Below, one piece after another: positions 6,694 to 29,895 of a stretch of 32,431 nt of DNA (position 1 is its first letter; each line of letters opens with the position of its first letter). This stretch comes from an uncultured archaeon. GTDB taxonomy: Archaea > Asgardarchaeota > Lokiarchaeia > Sigyniarchaeales > SOKP01. The notes beneath the pieces are model-generated. The model was not told the DNA's origin, made no database searches, and saw only the letters and a list, made by a program, of their open reading frames with translations. Both the position numbers and the translations under genes were made by a program. Location of the stretch: positions 1-32,431 of the forward strand of contig CAZGJX010000044.1 of the NCBI GenBank assembly GCA_964525635.1, in the 5' to 3' direction.

Positions 6694-6827
6694 CTAATCT
6701 ATTTTAATCATTTAAAAATCGAATCCTATTTAGCAATAAATAGTATTAGAGATGGTCTTATATAAAGAAAAAATCTTGATGTAGATAGAAAATAGAGAAT
6801 TTAATTAAAACAAAATAAAAAAGAAAA

Positions 6828-7484
6828 TTAAGAAAAATTAAATATATTAAATAGAACTTGCCCGAGTAGGTCTCGAAAGGTTTCTATAACATTTATTCCT
6901 TGAATCGCTACTGTAGGATACACAATTAGAGTACTATCGGAATATTTTTCTTCCATAGGGAGATGTAGTTGCTGTTTAAATTCCTCAATGCTGATCTTTC
7001 TGTGTAAATCCTGCTTATTAAGTTGGATTACGTAGGGAACACCTCTCGATTTGGAAAAACTTAACAATTCCCTGAAACTGCGTTTGTTTTGCTCCATGAT
7101 CTTAGGATGGGAATCTGCAACAAAAATAATTCCATCTGCTCCATTAAGCACATATTCCCTTGTCGAAAGAAATCGTTCCTGACCAGTACAAGTAACCACA
7201 TGAACTATAATAGTAAAGTCTCTTTGATTTATAGTGGCTTCAAAGGATAAGAACAGGGAATCTTGCCATAGAGTTCTTCCATCATTTGTCTCAATTGAAT
7301 ATCCTTCAGTTACTCGCTCAGTGGAAAATTTCTCTTTTAACCTAAAAAAATTAGTTGTTTTTCCTGATTCTCCTGGTCCCCAATAAACAATTTTTAATTG
7401 AATTAAATTACCAAGGAAAAGACTATGTCTTGTATTTTCCATAGTATTAGTATCCATTTCTGATTCTGATATATTTTTAAGCAC
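6828..7484 (-). CDS. MglA-like small GTPase (Ras/Arf superfamily)
   Basis: KIVYWGPGESGKTTN (G1, cf. MglA KIVYYGPGLxGKTTN), TCTGQERF (G3 lacking Asp, as in MglA), NKQD (G4). GAGGTGA SD before the GTG start. Confidence 0.85.
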   Translation of the reverse strand: MLKNISESEMDTNTMENTRHSLFLGNLIQLKIVYWGPGESGKTTNFFRLKEKFSTERVTEGYSIETNDGRTLWQDSLFLSFEATINQRDFTIIVHVVTCTGQERFLSTREYVLNGADGIIFVADSHPKIMEQNKRSFRELLSFSKSRGVPYVIQLNKQDLHRKISIEEFKQQLHLPMEEKYSDSTLIVYPTVAIQGINVIETFRDLLGQVLFNIFNFS

Positions 7485-7505
7485 TTTATATCACCTCTGA
7501 TGAGT

Positions 7506-8054
7506 CTATGTTAACATACTCAGTTTATCTTTGAATATCTCTTTCTTGAGCTCTTTTATATGTTCTTTTAACTCTTTCTCTGTCATCTTAAGGGTATTTT
7601 TTATGGTTCCTGATTGCTCGATCTCTTTTTTAATTATAGGAGCAAATTTTTGCATTTGAAGGATCATAACTCCAATATTGACATCATTATCGCACAATAG
7701 AATTATAAGAATTTCTCTCTTTTCTTCATGATTAATTTTAATATTAGTTATAGATTTTACAAATAATTGCATATTGTTGTAGATAATAGTTGCTCTGTCT
7801 AAATAATCAGCTTCGAAAAAATCCTGCCCTTGTCTTGCCACACCATACATCGCAGCACCAATTGAACTGAGATCCCAGTAATTAAGTTTTCTGTCGAATC
7901 GAGAATCTACTGCGATAATTTTGGCATCCTGATCAACTGCAATAATCCCGTAGATATATCCTTTCCTCGTGAGTTTTCCATAATTATCTCGAATCTCATC
8001 AAGAATAGTACTTATTTTATTTTTATATAATACTTTAGGTATTTGTATTACCAT
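7506..8054 (-). CDS. Roadblock/LC7 (MglB-like) protein
   Basis: GIIAVDQDAKIIA..LSSIGAAMYGVA..LIILLCDNDVNIGVM pattern; directly upstream of the MglA-like GTPase. Confidence 0.75.
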   Translation of the reverse strand: MVIQIPKVLYKNKISTILDEIRDNYGKLTRKGYIYGIIAVDQDAKIIAVDSRFDRKLNYWDLSSIGAAMYGVARQGQDFFEADYLDRATIIYNNMQLFVKSITNIKINHEEKREILIILLCDNDVNIGVMILQMQKFAPIIKKEIEQSGTIKNTLKMTEKELKEHIKELKKEIFKDKLSMLT

Positions 8055-8161
8055 GACTTTATCTCCAAATAAAATTATTTTAAAGTGAAATATTGTCGGG
8101 AGTATTTAAAGAAAAAAAAGAAAATGCACATAAAAAGATAGATATATATTCAAAGATATTA

Positions 8162-9088
8162 CTATATAATTTTTATTTTGGATCTTTTGGTGAAATGAAC
8201 TTCTTTCTCATTATTTCTATCATTGTTTTTTATCATTACGTTGGAAATTTTTATTAATATATCATTTTCAATTGATTTAAGAACCTCTATAGCCTTTAGA
8301 TCCCAAACTAAGACAATTATATTTCCAGTATCATCTATAAGTTGGAACTTTAGTAAAAAAGACTTCTCTCCATTTTTCTTATTAAATTCTTTAAAATCAT
8401 CTATTTTTACATATCCACTCACAGAATCAATAAATCCTTCTTTATTGAATAAATCTTTAATATGTGTACTATTCACATGGGAAAGGGAATATCCATTTCC
8501 ATTACCTAATTCAATTTTTTGCAATTGTTTCTTTATTTTATCATCAATATCACTTGGTGCTAAAATTAGTGTTCCTATTTTCCCCATATGGATTTCAAGT
8601 CCCCCATTCAACCCTTTTTTTGAATATCCATTAATAACTCTTACAATTTCACCTTTTTGAAAGAATTCAGTATCTATAATTTTAACATGTTCACCCCATA
8701 CTACAATTTTAATTGATCCTGAAGTATCAGCTAGTATAAATGATCCAACAAGTCCAGGAGTATTATCTTTTCTTATAAAAGATTTTATTTGAAAAATATT
8801 GGTAATCTTACCAAGAATCACTATGTTGCTCATCCCCTCTTGAAGGTCACTTAGAGGCATAGTAAACTCATTATAATCAATCTCTTTTTCAATTTCAGAG
8901 TAGAGATCAGGATCAATATCAGGAGATTGAATTTTAAGACCCTTTTCTTTTGCAATAAGAAATAATGCTCCTTGTTCTGTTATAAATCCATGAAATTCTG
9001 ACTTCTTTCTCTTAATTTCATTATTTAATTCTTCCTCTGAGAAACCCTTGTTGATTAAACACTGATAAACTTCTTCAATATCACTCAT
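8162..9088 (-). CDS. rpa: Replication protein A-like ssDNA-binding protein (two OB folds)
   Basis: N-terminal GFITEQGALFLIAKEKG; OB motifs FIRKDNTPGLVGSFILADTSGSIKIVVW and LIDDTGNIIVLVW. Probable start ATG 9088 overlaps the upstream stop. Confidence 0.85.
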   Translation of the reverse strand: MSDIEEVYQCLINKGFSEEELNNEIKRKKSEFHGFITEQGALFLIAKEKGLKIQSPDIDPDLYSEIEKEIDYNEFTMPLSDLQEGMSNIVILGKITNIFQIKSFIRKDNTPGLVGSFILADTSGSIKIVVWGEHVKIIDTEFFQKGEIVRVINGYSKKGLNGGLEIHMGKIGTLILAPSDIDDKIKKQLQKIELGNGNGYSLSHVNSTHIKDLFNKEGFIDSVSGYVKIDDFKEFNKKNGEKSFLLKFQLIDDTGNIIVLVWDLKAIEVLKSIENDILIKISNVMIKNNDRNNEKEVHFTKRSKIKII

Positions 9089-9689
9089 TTTTAGATAAAA
9101 CGCCTTTTTCAATTAAAATATTTTTTGTGCGGTAAAAAGCATAAGCAGAGCAATTTGTTATCGCCCGAATATTTGTATTCATCAATTTTCTTGAATTAAA
9201 GCTATCCTTAAGATCTGTTATAAAGACCAGTATAGCTAATTGAGTCGAAATTTGAGGCCATAAATGAGTTGTATTAAAAAATTTATGAAGTATCTTTAGG
9301 TTTTTTCTTGCTCTCTTATAATCAAAGACAGGAGCTAATCTATGAAGCTTATGAAGATAAATTTTAACTTTTGTGTATATATTATTTTTTTTTAGATCCC
9401 ATTTGATTTTACACCGTTTTAAAAACATCTGAAACGATTTTAAATCTCTTAGAAATTTTTCAATAATATTTTTAGTAATATTATAATGGGCAACCGTATT
9501 AGTAGAGATCAGCTCATATTGCCTTTCAGATAAGCAAGGTACGATTTCAGTCTCGTAATTCACATATGTAATTGAATACTTTCGAAGTGTATAATCTAAA
9601 ATGCTCTGTTTGATTTTTTTATAGTTTATTGAGCATTCAATCATCTGAGATTCCTTATCTTTAATGGCCAATGTAAATACATTCGTCAT
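9081..9689 (-). CDS. Hypothetical basic protein; C-terminus weakly resembles a TFB/cyclin-fold repeat
   Basis: PQISTQLAILVFI...LMNTNIRAITNCSAYAF pattern; coupled to rpa; promoter motif at 9746-9761. Confidence 0.55.
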   Translation of the reverse strand: MTNVFTLAIKDKESQMIECSINYKKIKQSILDYTLRKYSITYVNYETEIVPCLSERQYELISTNTVAHYNITKNIIEKFLRDLKSFQMFLKRCKIKWDLKKNNIYTKVKIYLHKLHRLAPVFDYKRARKNLKILHKFFNTTHLWPQISTQLAILVFITDLKDSFNSRKLMNTNIRAITNCSAYAFYRTKNILIEKGVLSKNE

Positions 9690-9764
9690 ACTCTTTTTCT
9701 CTCTTTTATTAAGATTGTATATTTAGAAAAGAAAAAGTGTGGTTATATTTAAAGAAAAAAATCT

Positions 9765-9883: not shown

Positions 9884-9889
9884 TTTTTT

Positions 9890-10527
9890 GGGTAAGTACA
9901 AAATTCAGTGATGGTAAATTAAAATTAATTTTAGGTCTTAAGTTTCCATTAAAGAAACTTAGAAAATTCAAATAATTGTTATTTTAAATATTTTGTATCA
10001 ACTTTAACGTCATAATCAGGATGTATACAAAGTCCTTTAAACTCTATTGCTTTAGGTTCAAATAAAAACCTTACAGGAACATTACAGTCTAATCCTTTTT
10101 GTATTTCCATAGCAGTAGAAAGTCCAGCATAACCTTTTTTGTTATATACAAGAAGTAAATCAGCATACTCAATTAACCTTTTAAAAATCATGTGATTCTT
10201 AGCTTTTTCAATTAGCTCAACACTTTTATTATATACATCATCACTTGGTTCAAAAACTTTTTTATATCTATCATTTATCAACTTCTTAGATAATGCTGTC
10301 ATCTTTTGTTTAAATCTCATTGAACCACTAATTATTATTGTTTCAATTTTATTATCACAACTCAACTGGCTCACCTTGTCTTTGATTTTCAGATTTTTAT
10401 AATATAATTTATTTAACCTAAAATATATGAAGAGTCTTCTTATTTTTTAATATTATATTCATCACAATTTAAATTATCATAAAATCTTGTTAATTTTTAG
10501 TTTTATCACTAAATTTTGTACAGAACC
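9890..10527. mobile_element. Non-autonomous gene-carrying element 1 (same TIR family)
   Basis: TIRs at 9890-9912 and 10505-10527 (19/23 match). The composite 9765-10527 is flanked by AAAAATCT (9757-9764 and 10528-10535). Confidence 0.8.
9979..10374 (-). CDS. Nucleoside 2-deoxyribosyltransferase-like (Rossmann) small protein, cargo gene
   Basis: IIISGSMRF...IEYADLLLVYNKKGYAGLSTAMEI motif. Confidence 0.6.
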   Translation of the reverse strand: MSQLSCDNKIETIIISGSMRFKQKMTALSKKLINDRYKKVFEPSDDVYNKSVELIEKAKNHMIFKRLIEYADLLLVYNKKGYAGLSTAMEIQKGLDCNVPVRFLFEPKAIEFKGLCIHPDYDVKVDTKYLK

Positions 10528-10535
10528 AAAAATCT

Positions 10536-11276
10536 GGGTAGATGCAGAACCTATTGATGAATTATTTTTTATATATAAATTATATGATTAAATCAGCTTT
10601 ATTGATATGATTAAAATTTTATTATCATAAATGCTATGAAGATAAAGAAGCATAAATTTAAAAATTCAAAAAAAACAACAAGTTAAATGAAAAAAGAAGA
10701 AAAAACTCGTGATCGTCCATATATACCTGATTATGGTATTGAAGAATCAGATAATGGATTATTAAGTTGGAATTTTGTACAAAATGAGATGAAGGATGCA
10801 AAAAATTATTGGTTAAGTACTACAAGATTAGATGGTCGTCCCCATGCAATTCCTATATGGGGATCATGGATTAATGATAATTTTTATTTTGGGGGAGGTT
10901 CAGGAACACAAAATCGTAGAAATTTAGCTGAAAATCCCCATATTGTTGTTCACTCAGAAAGTGGGATTAAGGTTGTTATAATTGAAGGGAAGGCCTCAAT
11001 TGAGAAAAATGAGGATTTAATTAAGGAGATCAAGAAGGATTATATGAGAAAATACAATTTAGATCATCCTCCTCCATTTTATAGGGTAAGCAAAACCAAA
11101 GTTCTTTGTTGGAATATGGATGATTATGCTGGAACCCCAACACGATGGAAATTTATAGAACTAAAAGAATGAAAAGATATGGAAAAGTTTTGATATGGAT
11201 AATTGGGATCCCAAACAATAATAATAAATTTATTAGCAATTATCTATTTTTTTATCACTGACCTTTGGAACTACCC
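10536..11276. mobile_element. Non-autonomous gene-carrying element 2 (degenerate TIRs)
   Basis: TIRs at 10536-10558 and 11254-11276 (15/23 match); AAAAATCT on both sides (10528-10535, 11277-11284). Confidence 0.75.
10687..11172 (+). CDS. Pyridoxamine 5'-phosphate oxidase-like split-barrel flavin/F420-binding protein, cargo gene
   Basis: NYWLSTTRLDGRPHAIPIWG...RNLAENPHIVVH...VVIIEGKA motif. Confidence 0.85.
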   Translation: MKKEEKTRDRPYIPDYGIEESDNGLLSWNFVQNEMKDAKNYWLSTTRLDGRPHAIPIWGSWINDNFYFGGGSGTQNRRNLAENPHIVVHSESGIKVVIIEGKASIEKNEDLIKEIKKDYMRKYNLDHPPPFYRVSKTKVLCWNMDDYAGTPTRWKFIELKE

Positions 11277-11384: not shown

Positions 11385-12482
11385 TTAATAATCAATCATA
11401 TCGAGGGTTTTTTGAATAACTTTTGGTCTATCTTTCTCATATTCAAATAATTTTAGACATTTATAAAAGCTCTCAACTAAAAATTTTGTATTTTTCTCAA
11501 CTCTCTCTTTATTAAGATGATGATCTTTGCAAAGTAAATGAAATATTCTTGTTGTATTAGGTGGATTCCAATAAAGGGCATCAAAATTACTTAAAACTTC
11601 AGGTAAAAGAAAGATTTTTCTGATTTCCATTATTAGATTGTGATTCAGAGCTGAAAAGTCATAATTTTCTTTCTCACCTGTTATTATTGATTCTATATTA
11701 TTGTATTTCTTAATGAATCTCAGAGCAGTTTTTGGACCAATCCCTTTTATTCCTTGAAAATAGTCTGTCTTTAAGAGTATTGCCAAATCAATTAATTGAA
11801 ATTGATCTATACCTATGATTTTTAGACTCTCTCTTAAATCTATATATTGTGGTTCTATCTTAATGTATGTCCATCTTCCATGTTCTTTTCTTTTCAGTGA
11901 TTTCGAAAGGTTCTGTATTAATCGAGGACAACCAAATAGAAGGGAATCAAAATCTTGAGAATTTGAAAAGTGAGTAATGTGTTCCTTTACTAATTGAGCA
12001 GATTGTGCTTCTGCTGAGACAGGTGAATTAACTATAGGCACCCCAAGAGCATGTAATAATTGCTTTGATTCCTTTATTACGTTTATCCACATATATTCTT
12101 TCGATAAAGCTATTTTCCTAGCTAGCTCTTTATTGTCTTTTTCTATTGCTTGCTTATATCGTTTTTGAGCGAAACGAAAGTCATTAAGTTGGTTTTTTGT
12201 TTCTACACGTTTTAGTTGAGAGACTTTCCCATCAAAGCAAAATATAGGAAGTATATTCTTACTATAAAGAAATTTTATACGATAAAGTATTCCATAAAGA
12301 TGAGAAAATACTCTTTGTGTTCGATCAAGAAATAAATCCGTCTCATATATAGTGGTGTTCTTATGGGAAAAATTCAGAAAACTCATGATAATATTGGGGG
12401 CATCTATTGCTATGATTCTCCCCTTTAACTCTGAAAAGTCAATTTTTTGCCTCTGAATTATTGAATTTAATTTTACTCCCAT
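11385..12482 (-). CDS. fen: Flap endonuclease 1 / XPG-family nuclease (divergent paralog)
   Basis: MGVKL, IAIDA, FCFDG, AEAQ, SQDFDSLLFG, TDY, H3TH GIGPKTA, C-terminal PIP-like QKTLD. Confidence 0.85.
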   Translation of the reverse strand: MGVKLNSIIQRQKIDFSELKGRIIAIDAPNIIMSFLNFSHKNTTIYETDLFLDRTQRVFSHLYGILYRIKFLYSKNILPIFCFDGKVSQLKRVETKNQLNDFRFAQKRYKQAIEKDNKELARKIALSKEYMWINVIKESKQLLHALGVPIVNSPVSAEAQSAQLVKEHITHFSNSQDFDSLLFGCPRLIQNLSKSLKRKEHGRWTYIKIEPQYIDLRESLKIIGIDQFQLIDLAILLKTDYFQGIKGIGPKTALRFIKKYNNIESIITGEKENYDFSALNHNLIMEIRKIFLLPEVLSNFDALYWNPPNTTRIFHLLCKDHHLNKERVEKNTKFLVESFYKCLKLFEYEKDRPKVIQKTLDMIDY

Positions 12483-12546
12483 TTGAACTATATTTGATGT
12501 TAAACAATATAAAGAAAAAATAAGTGTAATTTAACTCTTGGATTTT

Positions 12547-12665: not shown

Positions 12666-12867
12666 TGGATTTTTTATTTAAATATATACACTAATATTAT
12701 AACTAAGAATTAAAAAAAGAAAATAGATTTTTTCGTTATTAAATACCATTGATCAAAACCCTGGACTTGTAACCCTTTTTTTCTAATTTTTTAATTTCTA
12801 ATTTTCTCCTTCTTTTTTTTTTCCTTTAAATAATCTCATCTGAAGTGATTAGTAATTAAAAAAAACA

Positions 12868-14149
12868 TTGGTGAATAAAATTTCAGATTTAAGCCAAATA
12901 AAAGGAATAAACTCAAGACATATTAAACTTTTAGAAGAAAATGGTATATCTACCGCTGAAATGTTAGCGATGTCTTCTCAAAATAGTGTTGCAGACATCA
13001 ATGGGCTTGGAGATAAGACTGCAAAAAAACTTATTTGGAGTGCCCGAGATGCCTTAGGAATGACTGATTTTACTTCTGCTTCTGAGATGGATGACAATGT
13101 AGAATATTTCACTACAGGGTCTTCTGAACTAAATCGCATTTTAGGAGGAGGATTTCAAACAGGAAAATTAACTGAAGTGTATGGGCCCTTCAAATCAGGA
13201 AAAACTAATCTTTCTCATACACTTGCTGTAACTGTTCAATTACCAAAAGGAAGGGGAGGATTAGAAGGAGCTACAGCGTATATAGATACTGAGAATACAT
13301 TTTCAAAAAAGAAGATTGAACGTATCTCTAAACGATTTTCCCTTAATCCCAAAGATGTCTTAGGAAAGATCCATCATGCGAGAATTTATAGTTCAGATCA
13401 TCAAGATCAAATGATACTCCAAGCGGAAAAATTATGCAAAACTCGAAATGTAAGGATGATCATCGTTGATAGCTTAATGGCTCTACTTAGAGCTGAATAT
13501 GTAGGAATCGGAATGCTTGCAAGAAGACAAAGTGTACTCAATAGTATGATTCACGGATTATCCAGAATTGCTGAAACATATAACGCAGCAGTTTTATTAA
13601 CGAATCAAGTTGCTACAAAAATGATGGGAATGTTCTCTGCCGATGATGCTATAGGAGGAAATAGTGATGCCACAGTTCATGGATCACTTCCAAATTGTAG
13701 CACATGGCTGTCATTTCCGTGTAATGTTTAAAACAAAAGGATTCTCATCAAATAAATCCTTAAAGAGACGAGCTGTTATTGTAGATGCTCCTGATTTACC
13801 TCCAGAGGAGTGTGAATTCTATATCACAAATGCAGGAGTTGCAGATTCGGAAGAAGTTAATATACCAACTACTCAGGAACTATATATAAAATTGGAAACT
13901 TTATATGAAGAAAGTGATGATTCAATAGGAGAAAATGATACAAAAAGTGGAAATATAACTAAAAAAAACCTATCACTAACAGATATAAAGGGAATTGGGA
14001 AGGGAACAGTGGTAAATCTTAACCAAGAAGGAATAAACAATGTAGAAGATCTATTAAAAGTAGATCCAAAAGAATTATCCTCAAAAGTTAGTGGTGTATC
14101 TGAGTCCAAGATAATTGAGTGGCAAAAAATCGCTACAACTAAAATTTAA
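12868..14149 (+). CDS. radA: RadA/Rad51-family recombinase, two exons (12868-13662, 13694-14149), ~416 aa, with an extra C-terminal HhH domain
   Basis: N-terminal HhH, Walker A GPFKSGKT, YIDTENTF, Walker B IIVDS, TNQV. Removing 13663-13693 joins the two track ORFs as IGGN|IVAHG. Confidence 0.88.
13663..13693 (+). other. Putative 31-nt bulge-helix-bulge mRNA intron in radA
   Basis: Central helix GGAA(13657-60)/UUCC(13688-91), 3-nt bulges AUA(13661-63) and AAA(13692-94), flanking stems. Canonical cut sites restore the frame. Confidence 0.82.
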
Positions 14150-14467: not shown

Positions 14468-14604
14468 CTATACTATACAATATAATCAATAAATGGTAAA
14501 TAACCTATTTAAATCTCTTTATTACATAACAAATATGATATTTTTTCTTTATAAATATGTATTGGATAAAAGTATTTAAACTAAAATATAGGTGTTCTAT
14601 AGAG

Positions 14605-15463: not shown

Positions 15464-15506
15464 ATTGCATCATCTATAATTCTGATATATTTAAAAGAAA
15501 AAATAG

Positions 15507-19730: not shown

Positions 19731-19736
19731 AAAAAC

Positions 19737-20090: not shown

Positions 20091-20097
20091 CTTTATA

Positions 20098-20973: not shown

Positions 20974-21400
20974 GAATTTATCACCATATCGATGTATATA
21001 AACAAAAAATGGGTAAAAAACCAAAAAATAAAATCATACAATTAAATTTGAAAGACTTAACCATATTTATCATCCTAATATGAGGACTTAGAATTATAAA
21101 GTACAAAGATTTTTAAACCCGAAATCATCTGGTCAAATATGTATAAAATATCGATATTATTTCATAAATTTTAGATGCTGTCTTTTTTGGTGTGATCAAT
21201 GAAAATCTGACTATAAAATTATTGTATAAAATACTTTTAGAAATATATTATAAATTCTAAAATAATTTCAGAAAATAATGTAAAATTCTTATGAATTTGA
21301 AAAATGTTTTGTAATGATAATATCTAAAAGCAAAACTCCTTCCTTAATATTCTTAAGAAAATAAAAAATTGGTTCATCAAAAAAAAATTGTGATTAAAAA

Positions 21401-22663
21401 ATGGCAACACAAAATGATCCAAATGGTTATTCTATGGGAATCCTTAGCTTAACTTGCGATATATGTGGATCTCCCGATATTGCAGATACGAAACAAGGAT
21501 ATGTCTGTAAGACATGCGGTATTATGTTGGAGATTCAAAAATTAGAATATCATAGACCTTATGTTGAGACAAAAATCCAGCACGAGGTATTATCAACAAC
21601 TAAAATAGGATTACAACGAGAGAGACTCGCTAATCCAAATGCATATCGCTTAGAAAAACTAAATAAAATGCATAAAATAAAGTCTAATGATGATTTTATG
21701 AATCAACTTGCAAGAATTGAAATATCTAACATTGTAGCTTCTTTAAGACTCTCTCCAAAACTTAAGGAATCGCTTTACAGAATTTATCTAAGGATCAGAA
21801 AAGGACTAGAATCTGGTACAAAGTTTAGAAATCCTCAGAAATTAGTACCCTTAACATTATATTATCATCTTAAAGTGAATAATATCCCTCTTGATGAAGA
21901 AAAATTATTAGAAGTCTCTAAGATCAGTAAAAAAGAGTATAATTCATTTAAACATCAGATAATAAGATTTTTTCCAAATTATTATCAGAGAGACCGAAAA
22001 AAATTTATATTAAATCGAATTCTCGGAATCGCTGAAAATTTTGGAATGGGAATGTCTTTCTATAATGAAAGTAAGATACTTTTACCAAAATTATGGGACG
22101 TAATTAAAAACACTAAAGATGATGTTATCGCAGGGCTTATTGCATCAATAGTTGCTCTCTGTCATTATAAAGAGAAGGTTACAGTAAATAGTATTTGCTC
22201 CTATTTAAATATACGAATGAGCACAATTCAATCCCAAGTAAAAGAGAAAATTTTCCAAAGATTTCAAATATCAGGATTTCAGAGCCTTGTTAGATCTTCA
22301 GATATTCTAAGAAAAGTGATAGAGAATTTATTTAGAGTTAAAGAAGAGAGAAAAATGGATTCAGAACCAGTAAAAGATAATGCCTTGAAAGAAGGTATTA
22401 TCTTATCATCTGATATAGTCCAAATAAAATTAAGTGGAAACGTGAAACCTGTGTTTAATTCTCACAATACTATGAAATATTATATTTTTGCTGTCAGAGA
22501 TGAAAGCTTAGGTGAACCAAATTTTATTTCCTTAAAAGTTCCTAAAGCTCAAAGTCTAAAACAAATTGGAAAAGAATTTAGACCTAGAGTACATAGACAC
22601 ATTGAAATTGAGTCTATAAGATATCATAGTGGAAAAGGACCGCCTCTAATATCAGCTTATTGA
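21401..22663 (+). CDS. tfb: Transcription initiation factor IIB (TFB) paralog with C-terminal extension
   Basis: Zn ribbon CDICGS...YVCKTCGIML; two cyclin-like repeats, the second ending in HTH VTVNSICSYLNIRMSTIQ. Confidence 0.75.
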   Translation: MATQNDPNGYSMGILSLTCDICGSPDIADTKQGYVCKTCGIMLEIQKLEYHRPYVETKIQHEVLSTTKIGLQRERLANPNAYRLEKLNKMHKIKSNDDFMNQLARIEISNIVASLRLSPKLKESLYRIYLRIRKGLESGTKFRNPQKLVPLTLYYHLKVNNIPLDEEKLLEVSKISKKEYNSFKHQIIRFFPNYYQRDRKKFILNRILGIAENFGMGMSFYNESKILLPKLWDVIKNTKDDVIAGLIASIVALCHYKEKVTVNSICSYLNIRMSTIQSQVKEKIFQRFQISGFQSLVRSSDILRKVIENLFRVKEERKMDSEPVKDNALKEGIILSSDIVQIKLSGNVKPVFNSHNTMKYYIFAVRDESLGEPNFISLKVPKAQSLKQIGKEFRPRVHRHIEIESIRYHSGKGPPLISAY

Positions 22664-22815
22664 CTTATTCTTAAAATCTTTCTTTTGTAATTTACTTTTT
22701 TTATTTTTCTTTTTTTGTATTCTATCTGTTATTATCTTTGTATTTTACATTTTTTCTTTATATAGACTCATATTGCTTTGACTAATAATTATAAAATATA
22801 TAAATTAAAACCAAA

Positions 22816-25800
22816 ATGAGAACACACATTAGATGTTATGGAAAAGTAGTACTTTTAGGCTTCATTGCCTTATTTTCGATATGTTTCGTACTTCCCAGTA
22901 ATAATCATTTATCTGCTGATGAAATTGCTGATACTGAGAATACGATTGCAAACTCAAGCCAACAGACCAACTTGCAGATTATTGAAGAAATTCTAGATGA
23001 AAAAGTAGCAGATTTTACGAATAATGGGTATTTTTCTCAACTCTATACGCCCTCCTTACAGGGAACTTATTACGGCTTGTATATTCTTGATATCTTAGAC
23101 CGTCTTGATTTAATTAATCAGACAGAAATCACAAATTATATCATGGCTCAATTCAATGATGACTACAATATTTTTATGGATGACTATAGTTTTCGATATT
23201 TGGATACGGATTTTGATTTGAAATATTACCCTCTTACCTCTATTTTACAGACAAATTGTTATGTGATATTGTCCCTTCAATTACTAAATCGGTTGAATCT
23301 CATCGACACACAATATATAATTCAATTTATTTGGAGTTGTTTTGATTCTGAGCAAGGTGGATTCATTGGACAACCATATGATAATAATTTAGAAGAAGAA
23401 TTTAAAATAGCAACTTTAGATAATACTTTCTTTGCCGTAATAACGCTTGACCTTTTAATGAATGATTGGATGCAATATACTACCGAAAGAGACTTAATTA
23501 TTAATTATGTCAATGGACTTCAATCAAATATACCATCAGATCTATTATTTGGAGGATTTTTGAATGATAATAATATTGAATTTGAATCACTGGATTCTTT
23601 TGACCTTAATATTCTATCCTGTTACTATGCAATTAAAACTCTGGAAATTTTTAAGATGGTTGATACAATTCGAATAGATGATTTTAATCAATATTTATCT
23701 AATCTATATGATGATGATCTTAATTATTTTCAATATTCCAGGGTGATGCCTTATAATAATTACTCCAATATAGTAGCCACAAGTATAGGATTAGATCTTT
23801 CATTAAAGACAGAGTGCCCAGCTATTAATCATTCTGAATTATTAGACTTTATAATAAATAATAGAAATGAGTATGATATTTGGGATGCTTCTACAAGTCA
23901 TAATATATATGAATTAATAGATACATTTCGAATACTTAAATCACTGGAAGAATCTGGAAATTTAGCCATATTAACTCAAACAGATAAGGAAAATATTGTA
24001 AATGCGTTAAACCTATTTAAAAGTTACTGTAGCTTTTCGCTTATTCCTAAAGAATATACCAGTCAAGAATTAATGTACAGTATTATTCAATCATTTTCAC
24101 TTTATAATAGAATCTCTGATTTAGAACTTCATGAACTTTATAAACAAATTGAAAAAACCTATTTTGATTCTTCTCAAATCCAAAGTCGTGGTTTTTATAG
24201 CTATATGAATGTAGATGGATTATATAGTATCTTAAGAACATTACCGATTGAGTATTATAATGTTGGAAATCATTATTATACAGAAGAGATTGACTATGCA
24301 TATTCACATAAAAATACATATATGGCATTAAAATCGTTGGAGAGTCTATTTAAATTAGATGATTTTGAATTCATCCATGATTTAGAAGAAATACTAAATA
24401 GTATTATAAATTCTCAATTTTTAGATGAATCCTCAAATAAGTTTGGGGCATTTTTACCCTACGAGAACTTCAGTGTAATTTTAAAAGAGTATCAAGAGAA
24501 ATTTATCTTCTTTCATTATTCCTATTATGCAATTAAATGCATGGACTTTATAACTCATTATTTAGATCTGGGAATTGTCTCTGAATTAAATTTCGATAAG
24601 AGTGCTTTAATTAGTTATCTAGAGAAAAATATTGTAGAAACACCTACTACTCTATATTACAATTCAAATAATACAAATAATATAGAGGCAATTCTACAAG
24701 ATACATATTTCCTTGTTGATTTGTTGATGATATTGGATGAATACTTATTGGATACAGAGAAGATTAAAAATTATATTTTGGAAAATATCGATTATACAAA
24801 TATTAAAAACATATACTATTGCTATAAATTAGATGAAATACTCGATTTGGGAATAGAATTTGATATAGAGCTTACTCATCTCTTGATCAAAAATATTTAT
24901 GATAACACATTAAAAGAATTCTATACTTCAACAGAACATAAGGAAATAGATGGAGAAATCTTATATTGGATATGTTATATGTCAAGAAATGATGATTTAC
25001 GAGTAAGTGTTCAATATCAAGATCCTGTAATGCTTCTTGGTGAAAATAATATTAATGTTTCTATTTGTAATATTATCCTTGAGGATTTCGGACCTTATGC
25101 TGTTGTAAAATATGAAAGCCCCAAAATAGGAACTGTTGTATTAATAAGACAAGAACAAAATCTTTATAATGGTACGATCCCTATTCCTCTCGAATCAGAT
25201 TGCTACCCAATAATTTACGGAAATATCTCCTTATATGAAGGATTGACAAAGATTGCAGGTAAATCATTGAATTTTTCGACTACCTATGATTTAACTTATT
25301 TTTATGACATTATAGAATATGAAGACTCTATATATTTCGAAATAAACTCATCCTTAATAACAGCACAAGGAATGAAAGCATTTGAAAGCATGGAAGCATA
25401 TGTCAATATATATCAAGATGAGAACTTAATTGACCAAATAACATTCCAGATGACCGATTATATATCTTATAATCATTTTAATCTTACTTACAATTACCTT
25501 TCCTTTGAAAATTATACCTTTGACCTATTTTTAAATGATGGGATAAGATTAGAGCCTTATCAAGTCACCACTTTTGAGAGAGTAAGTAATTTCGATGTAG
25601 AAATAAATTATTCTCCTGTAGTACAGCTTAACAGTGTTAATATTATTACTATAAATCTTGGAAATTGTAGTGATGATGTTATTGTTAGGTTTGAGAGCTT
25701 ACAATTAAAGACAGTAATATTTGAGAAAAATGAATATAATAACTATCAAGGAGATGTCCTTATACCTTTACATCCGGATAACTATCCTAATGTTAATGGC

Positions 25801-26292
25801 AATATCAGTGTGTATTATCAAGCAGAGAAAGTCTTTAGCAGAGCTATAACATTCGGAACTACTTATGATATTGATTATACTTATGATGTGATTAGGAATG
25901 GAAATACAATGGATTTTAAAGTTAATTCGTCATTAATTACTGGGTATGGAAGGGAATCATATTCAGAAGAACAGGTATTTATGAAAGTATATAAGGACGG
26001 AAATTTGATAACTAATAATCAAGCTTTCACAATGAGTTTAGGCGATACATGGAACTTATTTAGTTCTTCATATGAAATGCTTTATGCCGATAACTATACA
26101 TTTGAATTATACTTAAATGATGGAATTAGTTCTGAATCTATTAAGATATTAACTTATGAGGGTATCTATAATAATGCTCCACCTAATGAGCCAGTTAATT
26201 TCATGGCGCCCTTAGGGATATTTATGATAGGAATGCCAGGTTCAGTTATCATGTATACTTCATATCGAAAGAATAAAAAAATAACTAAATGA
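22816..26292 (+). CDS. Large secreted, membrane-anchored protein with prenyltransferase/squalene-cyclase-like repeats
   Basis: Signal/TM N-terminus; repeated GGF..../TYY.L.L helices (e.g. FIWSCFDSEQGGF, TFFAVITLDLL); duplicated C-terminal beta domains; TM+RKNKK. Confidence 0.7.
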   Translation: MRTHIRCYGKVVLLGFIALFSICFVLPSNNHLSADEIADTENTIANSSQQTNLQIIEEILDEKVADFTNNGYFSQLYTPSLQGTYYGLYILDILDRLDLINQTEITNYIMAQFNDDYNIFMDDYSFRYLDTDFDLKYYPLTSILQTNCYVILSLQLLNRLNLIDTQYIIQFIWSCFDSEQGGFIGQPYDNNLEEEFKIATLDNTFFAVITLDLLMNDWMQYTTERDLIINYVNGLQSNIPSDLLFGGFLNDNNIEFESLDSFDLNILSCYYAIKTLEIFKMVDTIRIDDFNQYLSNLYDDDLNYFQYSRVMPYNNYSNIVATSIGLDLSLKTECPAINHSELLDFIINNRNEYDIWDASTSHNIYELIDTFRILKSLEESGNLAILTQTDKENIVNALNLFKSYCSFSLIPKEYTSQELMYSIIQSFSLYNRISDLELHELYKQIEKTYFDSSQIQSRGFYSYMNVDGLYSILRTLPIEYYNVGNHYYTEEIDYAYSHKNTYMALKSLESLFKLDDFEFIHDLEEILNSIINSQFLDESSNKFGAFLPYENFSVILKEYQEKFIFFHYSYYAIKCMDFITHYLDLGIVSELNFDKSALISYLEKNIVETPTTLYYNSNNTNNIEAILQDTYFLVDLLMILDEYLLDTEKIKNYILENIDYTNIKNIYYCYKLDEILDLGIEFDIELTHLLIKNIYDNTLKEFYTSTEHKEIDGEILYWICYMSRNDDLRVSVQYQDPVMLLGENNINVSICNIILEDFGPYAVVKYESPKIGTVVLIRQEQNLYNGTIPIPLESDCYPIIYGNISLYEGLTKIAGKSLNFSTTYDLTYFYDIIEYEDSIYFEINSSLITAQGMKAFESMEAYVNIYQDENLIDQITFQMTDYISYNHFNLTYNYLSFENYTFDLFLNDGIRLEPYQVTTFERVSNFDVEINYSPVVQLNSVNIITINLGNCSDDVIVRFESLQLKTVIFEKNEYNNYQGDVLIPLHPDNYPNVNGNISVYYQAEKVFSRAITFGTTYDIDYTYDVIRNGNTMDFKVNSSLITGYGRESYSEEQVFMKVYKDGNLITNNQAFTMSLGDTWNLFSSSYEMLYADNYTFELYLNDGISSESIKILTYEGIYNNAPPNEPVNFMAPLGIFMIGMPGSVIMYTSYRKNKKITK

Positions 26293-26344
26293 TTTTTTTC
26301 ATAATTTTTTCTTTTTATACTTTTATCTCTAAATCTTTTTAAAT

Positions 26345-27007
26345 ATGCAACCTGATTCCTATTCGAAATTATTAGATGATAGCAAAACAACAAGGACACT
26401 AAAAAGTACCGCTAGTTCAAAAAAGAAGGATATAGAATTATTTAATGTAATTCTCGATGCCTTGAACGCCTATAAGGGAAATTACCATAAAAAATTTAAT
26501 TTCGGAAAATTAATAGCTCAATTAGGTATATCGATTAATGAAAGTGAAGATATAATTAAATTAATTCTTAAGTTTCAGAACTTATTTCATAGTACTTTCA
26601 ATGATTATGAGCTCATCCCCAAGAAAATTAATAATTCATTATATTTTTTAACAGAGAAATTTACCAGTAAAATCCAAGATAAAAAAGAAGAGAAAGATAA
26701 CAGAAATAAGACAATTGAATTAAAACTAAAGCAAGATGAATTGAATATGTTAAATGATATTATTTATATATTCAAGCATGTAAATAGAGGAAAAGGTTTT
26801 GATTTATCTTTAAATAATTCTGATCTTATGCACAATATAAAATCTCTGAAATCCTCTTATCCTGCTATATTCTATGCTAATGGAAATAATTTAATATATC
26901 CCTCAAAACTAGGATTAGAACTTGGTGAGACTATTAACTCTTATTTCAAATGTAATCGTCTTTTTGAGAAACTTATTATAGATAATTATAAAATAACAGT
27001 GATATGA
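26345..27007 (+). CDS. Hypothetical protein, possibly winged-helix
   Basis: 220-aa ORF coupled to hef; FNFGKLIAQLGIS is HTH-like. Confidence 0.6.
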   Translation: MQPDSYSKLLDDSKTTRTLKSTASSKKKDIELFNVILDALNAYKGNYHKKFNFGKLIAQLGISINESEDIIKLILKFQNLFHSTFNDYELIPKKINNSLYFLTEKFTSKIQDKKEEKDNRNKTIELKLKQDELNMLNDIIYIFKHVNRGKGFDLSLNNSDLMHNIKSLKSSYPAIFYANGNNLIYPSKLGLELGETINSYFKCNRLFEKLIIDNYKITVI

Positions 27008-27012
27008 TATAA

Positions 27013-29112
27013 TTGAGTGATTCTGAACAATATCAAGATATAGTAAACATAGTTGAAATTGAAAATAAATATCTCAATAAAGAAAAATTAGAGACAAGAA
27101 AATATCAGTTAAGAATTGCAAAGGATTGTGTAGGAAAGAATTCTCTTATTGTATTACCCACGGGTTTAGGAAAGACAATAATTGCGGTACTCGTCGTAGC
27201 ATTTAACTTAGAAAAATATCCTATTGGAAGTAAAATCATTATCATGGCCCCAACAAGACCTCTAATAAACCAGCATTATGAAACATTTCGAAGCTTTTTA
27301 TCATTACCAGAAAAAAAATATTGTATCTTGACAGGGAAAAACTTACCTAAAGAAAGACCTCAAGAATTTCAGACTCATCAAATCCTATTTTTCACACCTC
27401 ATACTTTAAGAAATGATTTAGCAATGAAAAAATACTCCTTAGAAAATACTTGCCTTATAATTTTTGACGAAGCTCATCATGCAACAGGTGATTATCCATA
27501 TGCCTTGATCGCTGATGAATATATTGATCAAAATCCTGACGGTATTATTTTAGGAATGACAGCATCACCAGGAGCAAGTAAAGAAAAAATTATTCAATTA
27601 TGTCATAATTTGCATATACCTCCTACTAACATCCATCTTAGAGCAAGAAAGGATACTGATGTAAAAGGTTATTTAAAACCACTTGACATTTATAAAATTG
27701 GAGTAAATCTTACTTCATTGATGGATGATACTTGTAAGGCAATAAAAATTCTATTAGAAGAACGATTGCAACATCTTGCTGAGTTAGATTTTATCAAAGT
27801 TAAAGCAAAAGCTCTGCATAAAAAAGTTATCAGAAAAGATCTTCTCAAATTAAATAATGAGCTTATATCTCTAGTTCATGGAGATGGTAATAAGACAGGC
27901 GTATATTCTTCTTTATCAATAAATGCTCAAGCATTAATTCTCTTTCATATGATAGAATTAATTGAACAACAAGGTTTGGATGTATTACTTATTTATTTAG
28001 AAAAATTACAAAAAGATGCAAAAAAGAAAAATAGTTCTAAAGCTACAAGGGTATTGGCTTCAGATTATCGAATCCGTCAGATTCATTTAGAATTGATGAA
28101 AAATAAAGAGCTTAATTCCCCAGTATTAGTACATCCTAAATTAAAAATACTTCGCCAAATAATTATCGATGAGTTAAATAAGAATCATGATTCTCGTATT
28201 TTAGTTTTCGTGAAATTAAGGGCTTCTGTTAGAAATATTGTAGAAAATTTAAAGGAAAATAAGTTGATCAAACCAATTAGATTCGTGGGTCAAGCTACAA
28301 AGTCAAAAGAAGATAAAGGTTTGAACCAAAAACAGCAAATAGAACTCCTCGATCTGTTTAAGAAAGGGAAATACAATGTCTTGGTAAGTACTAATGTTGC
28401 GGAAGAGGGATTAGATATCGCTGAATGTGACTTAGTTATATTTTATGATGTTGTAGCGTCAGAAATTCGGTTAATTCAGAGAAAAGGAAGAACAGCTCGG
28501 CATAGAAAAGGAAAAGTTATCATTCTCTATTGTAGAAATACCAATGATGAGGTGTATTTAAATATTGCTTTAAATAAATTAAATAAAATGCAGAGAAATC
28601 TGCAAAAACCAAGCCTTCTGAAAGAAAATGAAAAAAAGATAAAAAATAAGACACAATCTAATTTGGGAGATTTTCTATCTAAAAAGGATAAAGCTAAGAA
28701 AGAAAAAGCTCATTTAGATATAAAGGTACACTGCAAATTAGATATGAAATTTGGACTACGTAAGAAGCTGAGTGAAAATAGATTGCCCTTTATTGTTGTT
28801 GACTCGCAAATAGATATTGAATTATTTGATAAAATAGCTATTCAAATATATGATCCAAGAGACTTTTCTGAAAATAGTATCATAGGAAAAAATCAGATTC
28901 TTCAGGAAAGCCATTCCTTAGGAGTCAATATCTTTGATTTTATTGATTTTTCTGAGAATTATGAAAGTGAAAAGCGCTTATTAAAAACCAAATTTAGGAA
29001 TTTAGGGAATACTTACAATCTACAAGTTATTAATATTGATACTCCTGAAGAATTATTCTTTATTATAAAGAACATCTATCAGCATAATATACAAGAGGAG
29101 AAAAAATTATGA
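27013..29112 (+). CDS. hef: Hef/FANCM/Mph1-like DEAH helicase with degenerate C-terminal domain
   Basis: LPTGLGKT, APTRPL, DEAHHA, MTASPG, RFVGQA, STNVAEEGLDI, QRKGRTAR. Confidence 0.88.
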   Translation: MSDSEQYQDIVNIVEIENKYLNKEKLETRKYQLRIAKDCVGKNSLIVLPTGLGKTIIAVLVVAFNLEKYPIGSKIIIMAPTRPLINQHYETFRSFLSLPEKKYCILTGKNLPKERPQEFQTHQILFFTPHTLRNDLAMKKYSLENTCLIIFDEAHHATGDYPYALIADEYIDQNPDGIILGMTASPGASKEKIIQLCHNLHIPPTNIHLRARKDTDVKGYLKPLDIYKIGVNLTSLMDDTCKAIKILLEERLQHLAELDFIKVKAKALHKKVIRKDLLKLNNELISLVHGDGNKTGVYSSLSINAQALILFHMIELIEQQGLDVLLIYLEKLQKDAKKKNSSKATRVLASDYRIRQIHLELMKNKELNSPVLVHPKLKILRQIIIDELNKNHDSRILVFVKLRASVRNIVENLKENKLIKPIRFVGQATKSKEDKGLNQKQQIELLDLFKKGKYNVLVSTNVAEEGLDIAECDLVIFYDVVASEIRLIQRKGRTARHRKGKVIILYCRNTNDEVYLNIALNKLNKMQRNLQKPSLLKENEKKIKNKTQSNLGDFLSKKDKAKKEKAHLDIKVHCKLDMKFGLRKKLSENRLPFIVVDSQIDIELFDKIAIQIYDPRDFSENSIIGKNQILQESHSLGVNIFDFIDFSENYESEKRLLKTKFRNLGNTYNLQVINIDTPEELFFIIKNIYQHNIQEEKKL

Positions 29113-29639
29113 GTGAAGAGGCCTGTTGGAAAAAAGATACTACTCCTTATCTGATTTTTAGATGCAGTAAATGCAGACAATATTTATATGTTAAACGATC
29201 ACAAAGGAATAAGAAGTGCCTAAGATGTGGAAAATCCCATAATATTAAAAATATTAATGAAGAAGAGATTGTCAATGGAATGAGTATTGCTGTTAAGCGT
29301 GTAAAAGAAAGACAAAATGAACTTGCAAAGAAAACATCAGGGGGCAAACCTGAGCTTCGGGGAGCAAGCGATTTTCATGTATCATCTGATACTAAAAACT
29401 TAGGATTTATAAAAAAACATAGGAAAAGTAATGAGATAAAAGAGAGATTTCAGGTATTACTGAAAGAACTTTCAAGCAAATATAAGATATTTCCAAAATA
29501 TATGATAGAATTACTGATTGAAGATTATCAAATAGAAAAATCAGACCTTAAATTTCTAATTATCTCTGCTCTAAAAAAGGAATTATTAAAAGAAGTAAAG
29601 AAGTATTATTATCAGGTATCAAAAGTGAAAAATAAATAA
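29109..29639 (+). CDS. DUF1922-like Zn-ribbon protein
   Basis: YLIFRCSKCRQYLY....KKCLRCGK; ATGA overlap with the hef stop. Confidence 0.65.
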   Translation: MSEEACWKKDTTPYLIFRCSKCRQYLYVKRSQRNKKCLRCGKSHNIKNINEEEIVNGMSIAVKRVKERQNELAKKTSGGKPELRGASDFHVSSDTKNLGFIKKHRKSNEIKERFQVLLKELSSKYKIFPKYMIELLIEDYQIEKSDLKFLIISALKKELLKEVKKYYYQVSKVKNK

Positions 29640-29644
29640 TTTTG

Positions 29645-29842
29645 TTATCCTGTCATTTCTTTTTTGAGGATCGTTAAATGAATATAATTTTTGGGAACAT
29701 ATTTTATTTTATACTTACGAGAGCTGAACTTATAAAAAGGAATAATAATATTTGATACTTTTATTTTATGTAATTCTGAATTTAATATTATGTTTTCTTT
29801 TGCTTTAAATATAGAATCCTTCCTATTTCCCTTAATACTCAT
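29645..29842 (-). CDS. Small basic hypothetical protein
   Basis: Short ORF supported only by the shared promoter motif at 29882-29895. Confidence 0.4.
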   Translation of the reverse strand: MSIKGNRKDSIFKAKENIILNSELHKIKVSNIIIPFYKFSSRKYKIKYVPKNYIHLTILKKEMTG

Positions 29843-29895
29843 GATTAGATAATTAATTTTATTATGTTCATAATTTAAAAGTATTTAAAGAAAAA

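Follow-up and report, generated by a model that had tools for sequence, protein, structure and literature searches.

Whether archaea divide their promoters among paralogues of transcription factor B (TFB) on the basis of sequence, in the manner of bacterial sigma factors, has long been debated, and few clear promoter differences have been found. We describe here a contig of 32,431 nt from an uncultured Asgard archaeon (CAZGJX010000044.1, C44 below; the window is this whole contig), in which a T-rich motif stands in the place of the purine-rich TFB recognition element (BRE) before the units of a gene cluster that also encodes a 420-aa TFB-like protein. The pairing is sharp, since a divergent TFB family, a distinct element in the BRE place and a linked gene set are all kept across the phylum. 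The comparisons reported below show a conserved, oriented, cluster-linked predicted core promoter with a T5C element in the BRE place and, linked to it, a full-length TFB paralogue whose DNA-reading helix appears re-specified. We put at roughly 0.6 the probability that the motif is the core promoter of a dedicated regulon and that the 420-aa TFB paralogue of the cluster reads the T-rich element. The computational tests applied all agreed with this reading, whose key step, the binding of the T-rich element by the paralogue, is inferred.

In Sulfolobus acidocaldarius, the full-length paralogue TFB2, the best recent case of such a division, occupies the promoters of the D-phase gene set beside the housekeeping factor TFB1 (bioRxiv 10.64898/2026.09.06.749720). 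The present system resembles TFB2 in being a TFB paralogue with a dedicated transcription programme, which is here predicted from sequence. However, the TATA boxes of TFB2 promoters are almost identical and their BREs alike except in spacing, whereas here the BRE place holds pyrimidines; and tfb2 is among its own targets, giving positive feedback, whereas the TFB-like gene has a canonical promoter and its protein is missed by the Pfam TFIIB model. Sulfolobus TFB3 offers another likeness, as a paralogue tied to DNA damage, exchange and repair whose induction activates a gene set (PMC6101594, PMC6101591). The 420-aa protein differs from TFB3 in that it retains the zinc ribbon, both cyclin repeats and a conserved, re-specified helix. 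TFB3 is reportedly a truncated protein without the DNA-reading core that assists TFB1 as a co-activator, and we know of no TFB3-specific BRE. Turkarslan et al. are said to have described, in 2011, the multiple TFB and TBP paralogues of Halobacterium as sigma-like regulators, and the expansion of initiation factors and the idea of promoter partitioning are common to both cases, ten canonical TFBs being present here too. The haloarchaeal paralogues are canonical TFBs with overlapping target sets and subtle promoter differences, whereas here there are one divergent family, one sharply distinct element and one linked cluster. None of the TFB2, TFB3 and haloarchaeal TFB families is known to have a distinct pyrimidine BRE.

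Other systems are similar in part. Bacterial alternative sigma factors, for example those of the extracytoplasmic function (ECF) type, likewise combine one factor gene with a distinctive upstream element common to a compact regulon, but ECF sigma genes are usually autoregulated, whereas the TFB-like gene stands behind a canonical promoter; the present system also differs in being TBP-dependent, in its RNA polymerase II-like enzyme and in the protein family concerned. In structure, the second helix-turn-helix (HTH2) of TFB, bound at the upstream BRE (BREup), is the analogue of sigma region 4 bound at the −35 element (PMC4581349). Pyrococcus TFB-RF1 serves promoters that lack a good purine BRE (PMC5937170), but it is a non-TFB protein that binds upstream of the BRE and recruits the normal TFB, whereas here there is no conserved site upstream of the T tract and the candidate reader is itself a TFB-family protein. 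Brf1 and Brf2 (PDB 4ROC, 8IUE; PMC4671959), which are among the fold matches of the 420-aa protein, are TFIIB-family factors that carry C-terminal extensions and act together with TBP at a particular class of promoters; they differ in serving Pol III, and we have no evidence here for a second polymerase or for Brf orthology. A literature search, which did not cover all journals, found neither a consensus for Asgard promoters nor this TFB-like family nor a pyrimidine BRE described.

The contig is part of a 4.45-Mb, 245-contig genome bin of 26.8% G+C (100% complete, 3% contamination; lineage of Loki-type Asgard archaea, Promethearchaeota), of which the window makes up 0.73%. The 14-mer TTTTTCTTTAWATA occurs in exact form six times in the window, at 6759(−), 8103(−), 9746(−), 15742(+), 22751(+) and 29882(−). 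Sites with one mismatch include 12506(−), 12819(+), 14542(+), 15488(−) and 26306(+), and the site at 30191(−) has two. Altogether, 14 near-exact copies head nearly all transcription units between 5.5 and 30.2 kb, the motif starting 35-79 nt upstream of the start codons. The window thus holds 6 of the 36 exact copies in the genome (17%) and 13 of the 321 copies with at most one mismatch. A sequence-only reading of this DNA had listed twelve sites; all twelve are present, within 0-6 nt of its positions and in the orientation of the downstream gene, but it had missed the sites at 20995(−) and 12671(+). Its remark that several sites lie in divergent gaps also stands (12506/12819, 15488/15742 and, in addition, 20995), and together with 14542 at least six window sites are so placed, while about half of the window sites come after a co-directional gene. 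Likewise, the purine BRE that it had noted outside the cluster is there, as AAAGG-TTTAAATA at 5424-5436(−). The cluster genes without the motif are internal to operons; among units, the exceptions are the TFB-like gene and two small genes at 9979..11172. The copies are as follows, scored in bits with a position weight matrix that was trained only on sites from other genomes; handles beginning with L are loci of relatives.

6759..6772, minus strand: promoter motif before the 391-aa gene 6693..5518; exact; 21.3 bits; a variant stands before the orthologue in genome G005.
8103..8116, minus strand: promoter motif before the operon of Roadblock-like and small GTPase genes (8054..7506, 7484..6828); exact; 25.2 bits; also before the orthologues in L016, L019 and L027.
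9746..9759, minus strand: promoter motif before the operon of the 202-aa gene and the RPA-like OB-fold gene (9689..8162); exact; 22.4 bits; kept in L016 and L019; a miniature inverted-repeat transposable element (MITE) lies directly upstream.
12506..12519, minus strand: promoter motif before the FEN1 paralogue 12482..11385, probably leaderless; one mismatch; 19.3 bits; variants in L016, L019, L023 and L027.
12671..12684, plus strand: extra motif copy beside a MITE, 148 nt upstream of the RadA promoter; one mismatch; 20.0 bits; duplication TGGATTTT.
12819..12832, plus strand: promoter motif before the RadA/Rad51 paralogue 12868..14149; one mismatch (TTTTCC); 23.0 bits.
14542..14555, plus strand: promoter motif before the membrane-protein gene 14557..15198, whose true start is probably an internal ATG; one mismatch; 20.0 bits.
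15488..15501, minus strand: promoter motif before the 73-aa membrane-protein gene 15463..15242; one mismatch; 18.7 bits; kept in L016, L018 and L019; MITE upstream, duplication CTATTTTT.
15742..15755, plus strand: promoter motif before the zinc-finger gene 15803..16132 and the genes that follow it; exact; kept in L013, L016, L018 and L019 and at the paralogous locus on contig C73.
20995..21008, minus strand: promoter motif in a TTTTTG variant, before the operon 20973..19011 (membrane protein, 117-aa protein, Rad51/KaiC-like ATPase); 19.6 bits; the orthologues in L016, L018, L019, L023 and L024 have TTTTTCTTTATA(T/A)A upstream.
22751..22764, plus strand: promoter motif before the 1158-aa toroid gene 22816..26292; exact; 24.4 bits; kept in L013, L016, L018, L019 and L024.
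26306..26319, plus strand: promoter motif in the variant TTTTTCTTTTTATA, before the operon 26345..29639 (220-aa gene, Hef-like helicase, DUF1922); 20.8 bits; a variant of the TTTTTATA type is retained in L016, L018, L019, L023 and L024.
29882..29895, minus strand: motif copy right after the stop codon of the 89-aa gene 30165..29896; exact; 19.7 bits; target not conserved.
30191..30204, minus strand: weaker motif before the 89-aa gene 30165..29896; two mismatches; 17.2 bits; a clear TTTTTCTTTA(T/A)AT in L017 and L023.

The copy at 29882..29895 may drive a 65-aa open reading frame (ORF) at 29842..29645 or an untranslated RNA; because its target is not conserved, its function is uncertain.

There is very little chance that these repeats are an artefact, produced by chance in low-complexity DNA, carried by the MITE, or brought together in a mixed bin whose parts have different general promoters. 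Three window sites do adjoin the 119-bp MITE, and at these (9746, 12671, 15488) part of the T tract is the target-site duplication of the element; the repair genes of the cluster each have a counterpart elsewhere in the genome of only 33-43% identity, that is, second copies of RadA, FEN1, Hef and RPA; and the copies with one mismatch outside the window are mostly noise in an AT-rich genome, 146 of 285 being intragenic. However, six exact copies stand against 0.02 expected from dinucleotide shuffles, the motif lies outside the terminal repeats of the MITE, and 11 of the 14 window sites are MITE-free. The completeness and low contamination of the bin, the MITEs and insertion sequence (IS) ends that C44 shares with other contigs, the presence of both gene copies in related genomes and the synteny of the cluster there also speak against an artefact. 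The MITE was accordingly rejected as the carrier of the promoter, the motif lying in target DNA, and a mixed bin or a mobile element was rejected as the source of the second copies on the grounds of the synteny in relatives and of the MITEs and IS ends common to many contigs.

The MITE is of interest in its own right. It is 119 bp long, has imperfect terminal inverted repeats (GGGTAGGTACAAATGTTAGTGAT ... ATCACTGAATTTTGTACGCACCC) and is present in 12 copies of 90-100% identity, of which three are in the window (9765-9883, 12547-12665 and 15507-15626) and the others on C107, C79, C22, C17, C2, C126, C164 and C132. Eleven or all twelve of these copies directly adjoin a T tract followed by TTTAAATA. 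The target duplication is 7-8 bp long and T-rich, ends 2-3 bp before the TATA box and restores the T tract. The element seems to target this promoter class or a complex bound to it.

The anatomy of the promoter was read from 250 sites of other genomes, found with a relaxed form of the search pattern, by scoring the positions that the pattern does not fix. The T given below at −1 is a position outside the search pattern, and the C at −1 or −2 of the BRE place and of the covariation results refers to the bases next to the TATA box. The full motif reads (A)TTTTT(T/C)C-TTTAWATA-NN-YYY-R and is followed, about 15 nt on, by a T/Y-A initiator. The BRE place (−7 to −1) is thus TTTTT(T/C)C and not purine-rich. 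Outside the search pattern, T is found at −1 in 68% of the sites (G in 2%), pyrimidines occupy +16 to +18, a purine stands at +19 in 93%, 6 nt after the TATA box, and A stands at +35 in 77%, preceded by T or C and 22 nt after the end of the TATA box. By its position, the T/Y-A at +35 is the predicted initiator at the usual archaeal spacing; in about 30% of the sites the initiator A is also the A of the ATG, and the message would be leaderless. The purine at +19 is present at 14 of 14 window sites and, among the exact copies of the genome, at 21 of the 23 that are promoter-like or co-oriented as against 3 of the 7 that are intragenic. Upstream of position −2, no conservation was found in the 250 sites. 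The element as the sequence-only reading had defined it is therefore real but too short, the motif extending to the T at −1, the YYYR after the TATA box and the initiator. Position, orientation, conservation across genera and initiator distance all fit a promoter.

The motif is not the general promoter of this genome. At 18 bits or more, 13 of the 82 matrix matches in the genome fall in the window; at 16 bits or more, 42 of 2960 upstream regions (about 1.4%) have a match in the sense direction, compared with 13 in antisense and 5 for the reversed matrix, and 10 of the 42 are on C44. None of 51 tRNA upstream regions has the motif (top score 7 bits), nor does any of the 10 canonical TFB genes (top score 12.3 bits). 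Because matrix matches are rare and none is found at the tRNA or canonical TFB genes, the motif is not equally frequent before housekeeping genes, in keeping with the special promoter class that had been proposed from the window. The 36 exact copies include 17 in promoter-like positions, 6 co-oriented but more than 150 nt from a called gene, 7 intragenic and 4 facing the wrong way. The earlier idea of a regulon belonging to the cluster is supported, but not its confinement there: about 30-40 units on at least 10 contigs bear the motif, of which 13-14 are within the cluster. Other motif-rich spots are on C73, C25, C15, C59, C107, C215 and C21, and they include paralogues of cluster genes and a second TFB-like gene (C21).

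What the general promoter looks like can be told in outline. As judged by the sense/antisense k-mer bias, it is A-rich and not T-rich words that are over-represented on the sense strands upstream of genes; purine-rich hexamers precede TTTAWATA 251 times in sense and 165 times in antisense, whereas TTTC-TTTAWATA occurs 19 and 5 times; and A-rich stretches, read by eye, precede TATA-like boxes at the tRNA genes. De novo expectation maximization on 2397 upstream regions returned low-complexity T-to-A transitions and no general promoter model, the position-specific composition relative to the start codons was flat, and the flanks of all TTTAWATA copies were almost without information. The claim of a general purine- or A-rich BRE is therefore drawn from the k-mer bias, the tRNA regions, the hexamer count and the promoter of the TFB-like gene rather than from a full model.

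The cluster, of about 20 genes (5518-30165) in our inventory of ORFs and Pfam domains, is kept in relatives. Its synteny extends over many Promethearchaeota and covers at least seven genera of the family at 30-80% protein identity, with a recurring gene order of 391-aa gene, GTPase/Roadblock, RPA-like, FEN1, RadA, ATPase, TFB-like, toroid, Hef and DUF1922. When the 110 nt before each orthologous gene were lined up across the genomes of relatives, the motif was found to be retained before orthologous units while the remaining intergenic DNA was unalignable. It is kept before the Roadblock operon, the 202-aa/RPA operon, FEN1, the 73-aa gene, the zinc-finger operon, the 20973 operon, the toroid gene and the 89-aa gene, and the Hef operon retains its own TTTTTCTTTTTAT variant across relatives. 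In a phylum-wide sample of 80 loci around TFB-like homologues in species-representative genomes (1.06 Mb), the exact 14-mer occurs 121 times and its reversed control 5 times, and the relaxed form 250 and 19 times, whereas the purine analogue is not enriched in these loci (14 versus 18). The density of the 14-mer is about 114 per Mb at TFB-like loci compared with 8 per Mb in the whole genome. The 60 loci with the repair cluster hold 342 matrix matches versus 9 reversed, and 7 loci in which a TFB-like paralogue stands among unrelated genes hold 21 versus 1. Because these non-cluster loci are also enriched, the motif follows the TFB-like gene and not merely the repair genes. Three near-complete relatives lack the TFB-like gene and also an orthologue of the cluster Hef helicase (best match 41-44% versus 51-59% identity). 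In these the 14-mer is near background (27 versus 18 in the control), 12 of the 27 copies are inside ORFs with few in promoter position, and a purine stands at +19 in only 52%. No excess of the 14-mer was found in other families of the order (29 versus 41 in the control).

These data also bear on the idea that the T run has no dedicated reader and is a structural or strength feature, such as a rigid A/T tract that affects TBP orientation or bending, or a combined terminator and promoter, usable by any TFB; its conservation would then reflect an inherited strong promoter cassette. T runs are common in a genome of 27% G+C, archaeal terminators are oligo-T tracts and about half of the window sites follow a co-directional gene, and, among the genes that bear the motif outside the cluster, several are paralogues that may have been copied together with their promoters. 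However, at least six window sites lie in divergent gaps, in which a terminator would not be expected, and the conservation at −1 (C) and at +19 (purine) is base-specific. The motif is kept at 30-50% protein identity, where neutral DNA is saturated, it shows a sense bias before genes and is missing from tRNA and TFB genes, and its enrichment is 24-fold near TFB-like genes compared with about 1.6- to 3-fold genome-wide. We consider such a reader-free T run improbable. An oligo-T terminator in particular does not account for the divergent-gap sites, the fixed register with the TATA box and the C at −1. The computation also speaks against the possibility that the motif marks transcript 3′ ends, raised with the first sequence-only reading as a finding that would refute it, through the fixed register of the T run with the TATA box, the initiator, the +19 purine and the six divergent-gap sites.

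The candidate reader is encoded within the cluster:

21401..22663, plus strand: TFB-like initiation factor of 420 aa, with a zinc ribbon, two cyclin repeats, an altered HTH2 helix (RMSTIQSQVKE) and a C-terminal extension.

Its family numbers more than 235 proteins, with lengths of about 400-445 aa and mostly annotated as hypothetical, and the members with a named source all come from Asgard metagenome-assembled genomes, mostly of Promethearchaeota. The cysteines C19, C22, C36 and C39 of the zinc ribbon are invariant in 36 family members, and the match to the zinc-ribbon model PF08271 (E 0.0015) is below the Pfam cut-off. In a profile alignment (hhalign) against the canonical TFBs of the same genome, the family was matched with a probability of 98% (E 1.5e-13), and the 266 aligned columns begin in the zinc ribbon and run through the whole of repeat 2; its profile gives a weak match (E 5e-4) to the Pyrococcus TFB core. 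In a Foldseek search with the AlphaFold model, the Pyrococcus TFB core (1D3U_B/1AIS_B) was found with a TM score of 0.77 and a root-mean-square deviation of 3.3-3.7 Å, and the top matches were all TFIIB, TFB or Brf. By these profile and model comparisons, the 420-aa protein is a TFB family member with the full predicted TFB architecture. A conserved LEYHRPY aligns at the (E)WRAF place of canonical TFBs, where the model (residues 46-67) has a predicted local confidence (pLDDT) below 50. The genome has ten canonical TFBs, each with two TFIIB repeats, and two TFB-like genes.

The helix of HTH2 is where the family departs from canonical TFBs. The canonical helix is GVTEVT(I/L)R(N/S)RYKE; six of the TFBs of the genome all have its T, E, T, R, R and K, and the base-contacting TFIIB residues in it are presumably the first of the two arginines and the residue three positions before. 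The helix of the TFB-like family is (I)RMSTIQSQVKE, in which M273, S274, T275 and Q279 never vary and position 277, in the place of the first arginine, holds Q or H and rarely N. Both canonical arginines are thus glutamines in the 420-aa protein, and the signature T-E-x-T-(I/L)-R-x-R-x-K is absent. These changes fit an altered specificity, and not the loss of the helix, as far as the alignment tells. HTH2 is the part of TFB that enters the major groove at BREup (PMC4581349). A comparison of the HTH residues with those of canonical TFBs, which the first reading had put forward as a check, thus points in the direction that it had expected, to a re-specified BRE-reading helix.

The promoters change together with the helix. 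For this comparison, sites were called with positions −2 and −1 masked and the loci grouped by helix sequence. At the 13 loci with the helix K-MSTI-HR-QVE, C is found at −2 in 55% of the sites versus 20-22% elsewhere, and at the 4 loci with Q-MSTIQ(R/H)QVEQ, of similar G+C, C is found at −1 in 13% versus 62-74%, with A in 54%. The direction of the covariation is the one that a helix-to-base reading would predict.

The main rival, unlikely in our judgement, is that the T-rich element has another reader, encoded in the cluster or elsewhere, which brings a canonical TFB to a weak BRE as TFB-RF1 does in Pyrococcus, the TFB-like protein being a mere regulon-associated gene or a TFB3-like factor without DNA contact. 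The cluster does encode small family-less or zinc-finger proteins (26345..27007, 9081..9689, 15803..16132, 29109..29639), TFB3 is said to be a co-activator that does not read DNA (PMC6101594), and the co-occurrence fits any constant gene of the cluster equally; activators that offset weak BREs are also known (PMC5937170). However, the T tract is flush with the TATA box, where HTH2 sits, whereas the known activators of this kind bind further upstream, and there is no conservation above −2. In addition, TFB-like paralogues outside the cluster still have motif-bearing neighbours, the bases at −1 and −2 co-vary with the helix, and the full architecture with a family-invariant, re-specified helix is unlike TFB3.

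The promoter of the TFB-like gene is itself of a different kind:

21318..21357, plus strand: own promoter of the TFB-like gene, with a purine BRE (GATAAT), ATCTAAAAG, the conserved box AAACTCCTTCC and TTCTTAAG, and without a T tract.

This layout, a purine BRE followed by TTTAAAAG and AAACTCCTWCC, is kept in most of 58 homologous loci. The BRE elsewhere is gaaaag, cgtaag or gataag, followed by (A/G)TTTAAAA(A)G, the near-invariant CAAACTCCTWCC and then TTTCTTAG. In the window, the box (C)AAACTCCTWCC (21333-21357) is found downstream of the TATA box of the TFB-like gene but ahead of its start site, and is followed by TTTCTTAG; one other copy of the box is found in the genome, at C164:2558. The box is possibly the operator of the whole cascade, a candidate suggested by its conservation. 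Among the conserved genes of the cluster, the TFB-like gene is the sole unit with a purine BRE. The one conserved unit without the T-rich element is thus that of the candidate reader itself, and the arrangement matches the expected look of a two-tier cascade.

In the mechanism that we propose, TBP would bind the TATA box, and the 420-aa TFB-family protein, not any of the ten canonical TFBs, would dock its HTH2 on the T-rich element and use the zinc ribbon and B-reader-like segment that it retains to recruit RNA polymerase. The TFB-like gene would be transcribed from its canonical purine-BRE promoter bearing AAACTCCTWCC, and a signal that turns on this gene would therefore turn on the whole set, as with a bacterial alternative sigma factor. 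For the fuller account we would give about even odds: that a lineage-specific TFIIB-family factor, its helix re-specified from the purine BRE to T5C, acts with TBP to drive a phylum-wide regulon of duplicated genes for recombination and repair (RadA, FEN1, Hef, RPA-like), along with GTPase/Roadblock and membrane-protein genes, one tier below a canonical promoter.

Several points weigh against the assignment of the T-rich element to the 420-aa protein. The link between protein and element is correlative, and because the genome has ten canonical TFBs and a second TFB-like gene, the choice of this paralogue as the reader is made on comparative grounds; those ten canonical TFBs are possible users of the motif as well. 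Because the cluster and the TFB-like gene travel together, another factor of the cluster could be the reader, the candidates being the unannotated 220-aa and 202-aa proteins and the zinc-finger proteins, and the T run could act through DNA shape rather than by base reading. The Pfam TFIIB model (PF00382) misses the 420-aa protein and finds the ten canonical TFBs of the genome, and the AlphaFold model is of moderate confidence only, with a pLDDT of 71 (core 80-92). The covariation amounts to two clade-level events, which are phylogenetically dependent and one of which coincides with higher G+C; the per-locus P values are therefore overstated. Finally, whole-genome counts of the exact 14-mer in 30 relatives separate carriers from non-carriers weakly, and in G001, of the same genus, the TFB-like gene was not found, yet there are 26 copies versus 11 in the control. 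The gene may be unassembled in G001; because that genome is fragmented, with a piece of the cluster helicase on a short contig, its absence is not trusted.

Other features of the TFB genes were also observed. The C-terminal extension of the 420-aa protein, of about 100 residues, is predicted to be beta-rich (residues ~350-420, window 22400-22663), ends in a conserved KGPP and has no counterpart in canonical TFBs. The TFB genes of the genome are spread over the contigs C9, C28, C92, C19, C4, C11, C8, C51, C7, C42 and C21. On C21 lies the second TFB-like gene (18762-19925), which is more divergent, has the helix ISICNVQYQVK and has motif copies nearby.

The gene content of the cluster suggests a programme of recombination, repair or DNA handling. 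By ORFs and Pfam, the window holds a run of information-processing genes, with an Arf/Ras-like small GTPase (Arf/Ras Pfam matches) and its Roadblock-like partner, an RPA-like OB-fold protein, FEN1, RadA/Rad51 (Rad51 Pfam, E 4e-59), a Rad51/KaiC-like ATPase (also termed RadB/KaiC-like), a HerA/FtsK-like ATPase, the 420-aa zinc-ribbon protein, a 1158-aa secreted prenyltransferase-like alpha/alpha-toroid protein, a Hef-like gene in which helicase domains were found, a DUF1922 protein, several membrane proteins and zinc-finger proteins. The FEN1 of the cluster resembles archaeal FEN1 more closely than human FEN1; for Asgards, a second FEN1 that is related to the eukaryotic one ('Fen1-2') has been published (PMC12680538). 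The RadA/Rad51 paralogue (12868-14149), which has a second helix-hairpin-helix domain at its C-terminus, is split on this contig only by a frameshift near 13664-13731; its parts form one continuous frame in G005, G013, G016, G017 and G004, and the frameshift could be a sequencing error, a pseudogene or programmed frameshifting. The HerA/FtsK-like ATPase (17183..18952, DUF87) has a 62% identical paralogue on C66. Neither this gene nor the two small motif-free genes at 9979..11172 have a counterpart in the cluster loci of relatives examined, and from their distribution they look like local insertions into the cluster.

As to the contig itself, transposase or IS genes lie at both ends (2-412 and 31272-32329), with protein copies of 50-58% identity on many contigs (tblastn). 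Because the 55-nt termini of the contig recur at the ends of other contigs, the ends are probably assembly breaks. Rfam and tRNA scans of the window gave no matches. Dense tRNA arrays are found on C54 (19.1-26.3 kb, about 22 genes) and C146 (5.8-8.3 kb), with a spacing of about 80-100 nt; these are unusual for an archaeal chromosome and could belong to a virus, a mobile element or a foreign contig.

If the proposed reading is true, no clearer case of a TFB paralogue partitioning promoters in the manner of a sigma factor would so far exist, and specialised TFIIB-like factors that recognise sequences of their own next to the TATA box would have a precedent among prokaryotes, namely in those most closely related to eukaryotes. 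Recombinant proteins and short DNA fragments would suffice to test the prediction, so that the organism need not be cultured. The motif offers a means to predict the members of the programme in uncultured Asgards and a defined, inducible pair of promoter and factor for genetic tools. In the Asgard setting, the way in which TFIIB-like factors and the paralogues for replication and repair diversified is relevant to the origin of eukaryotes.

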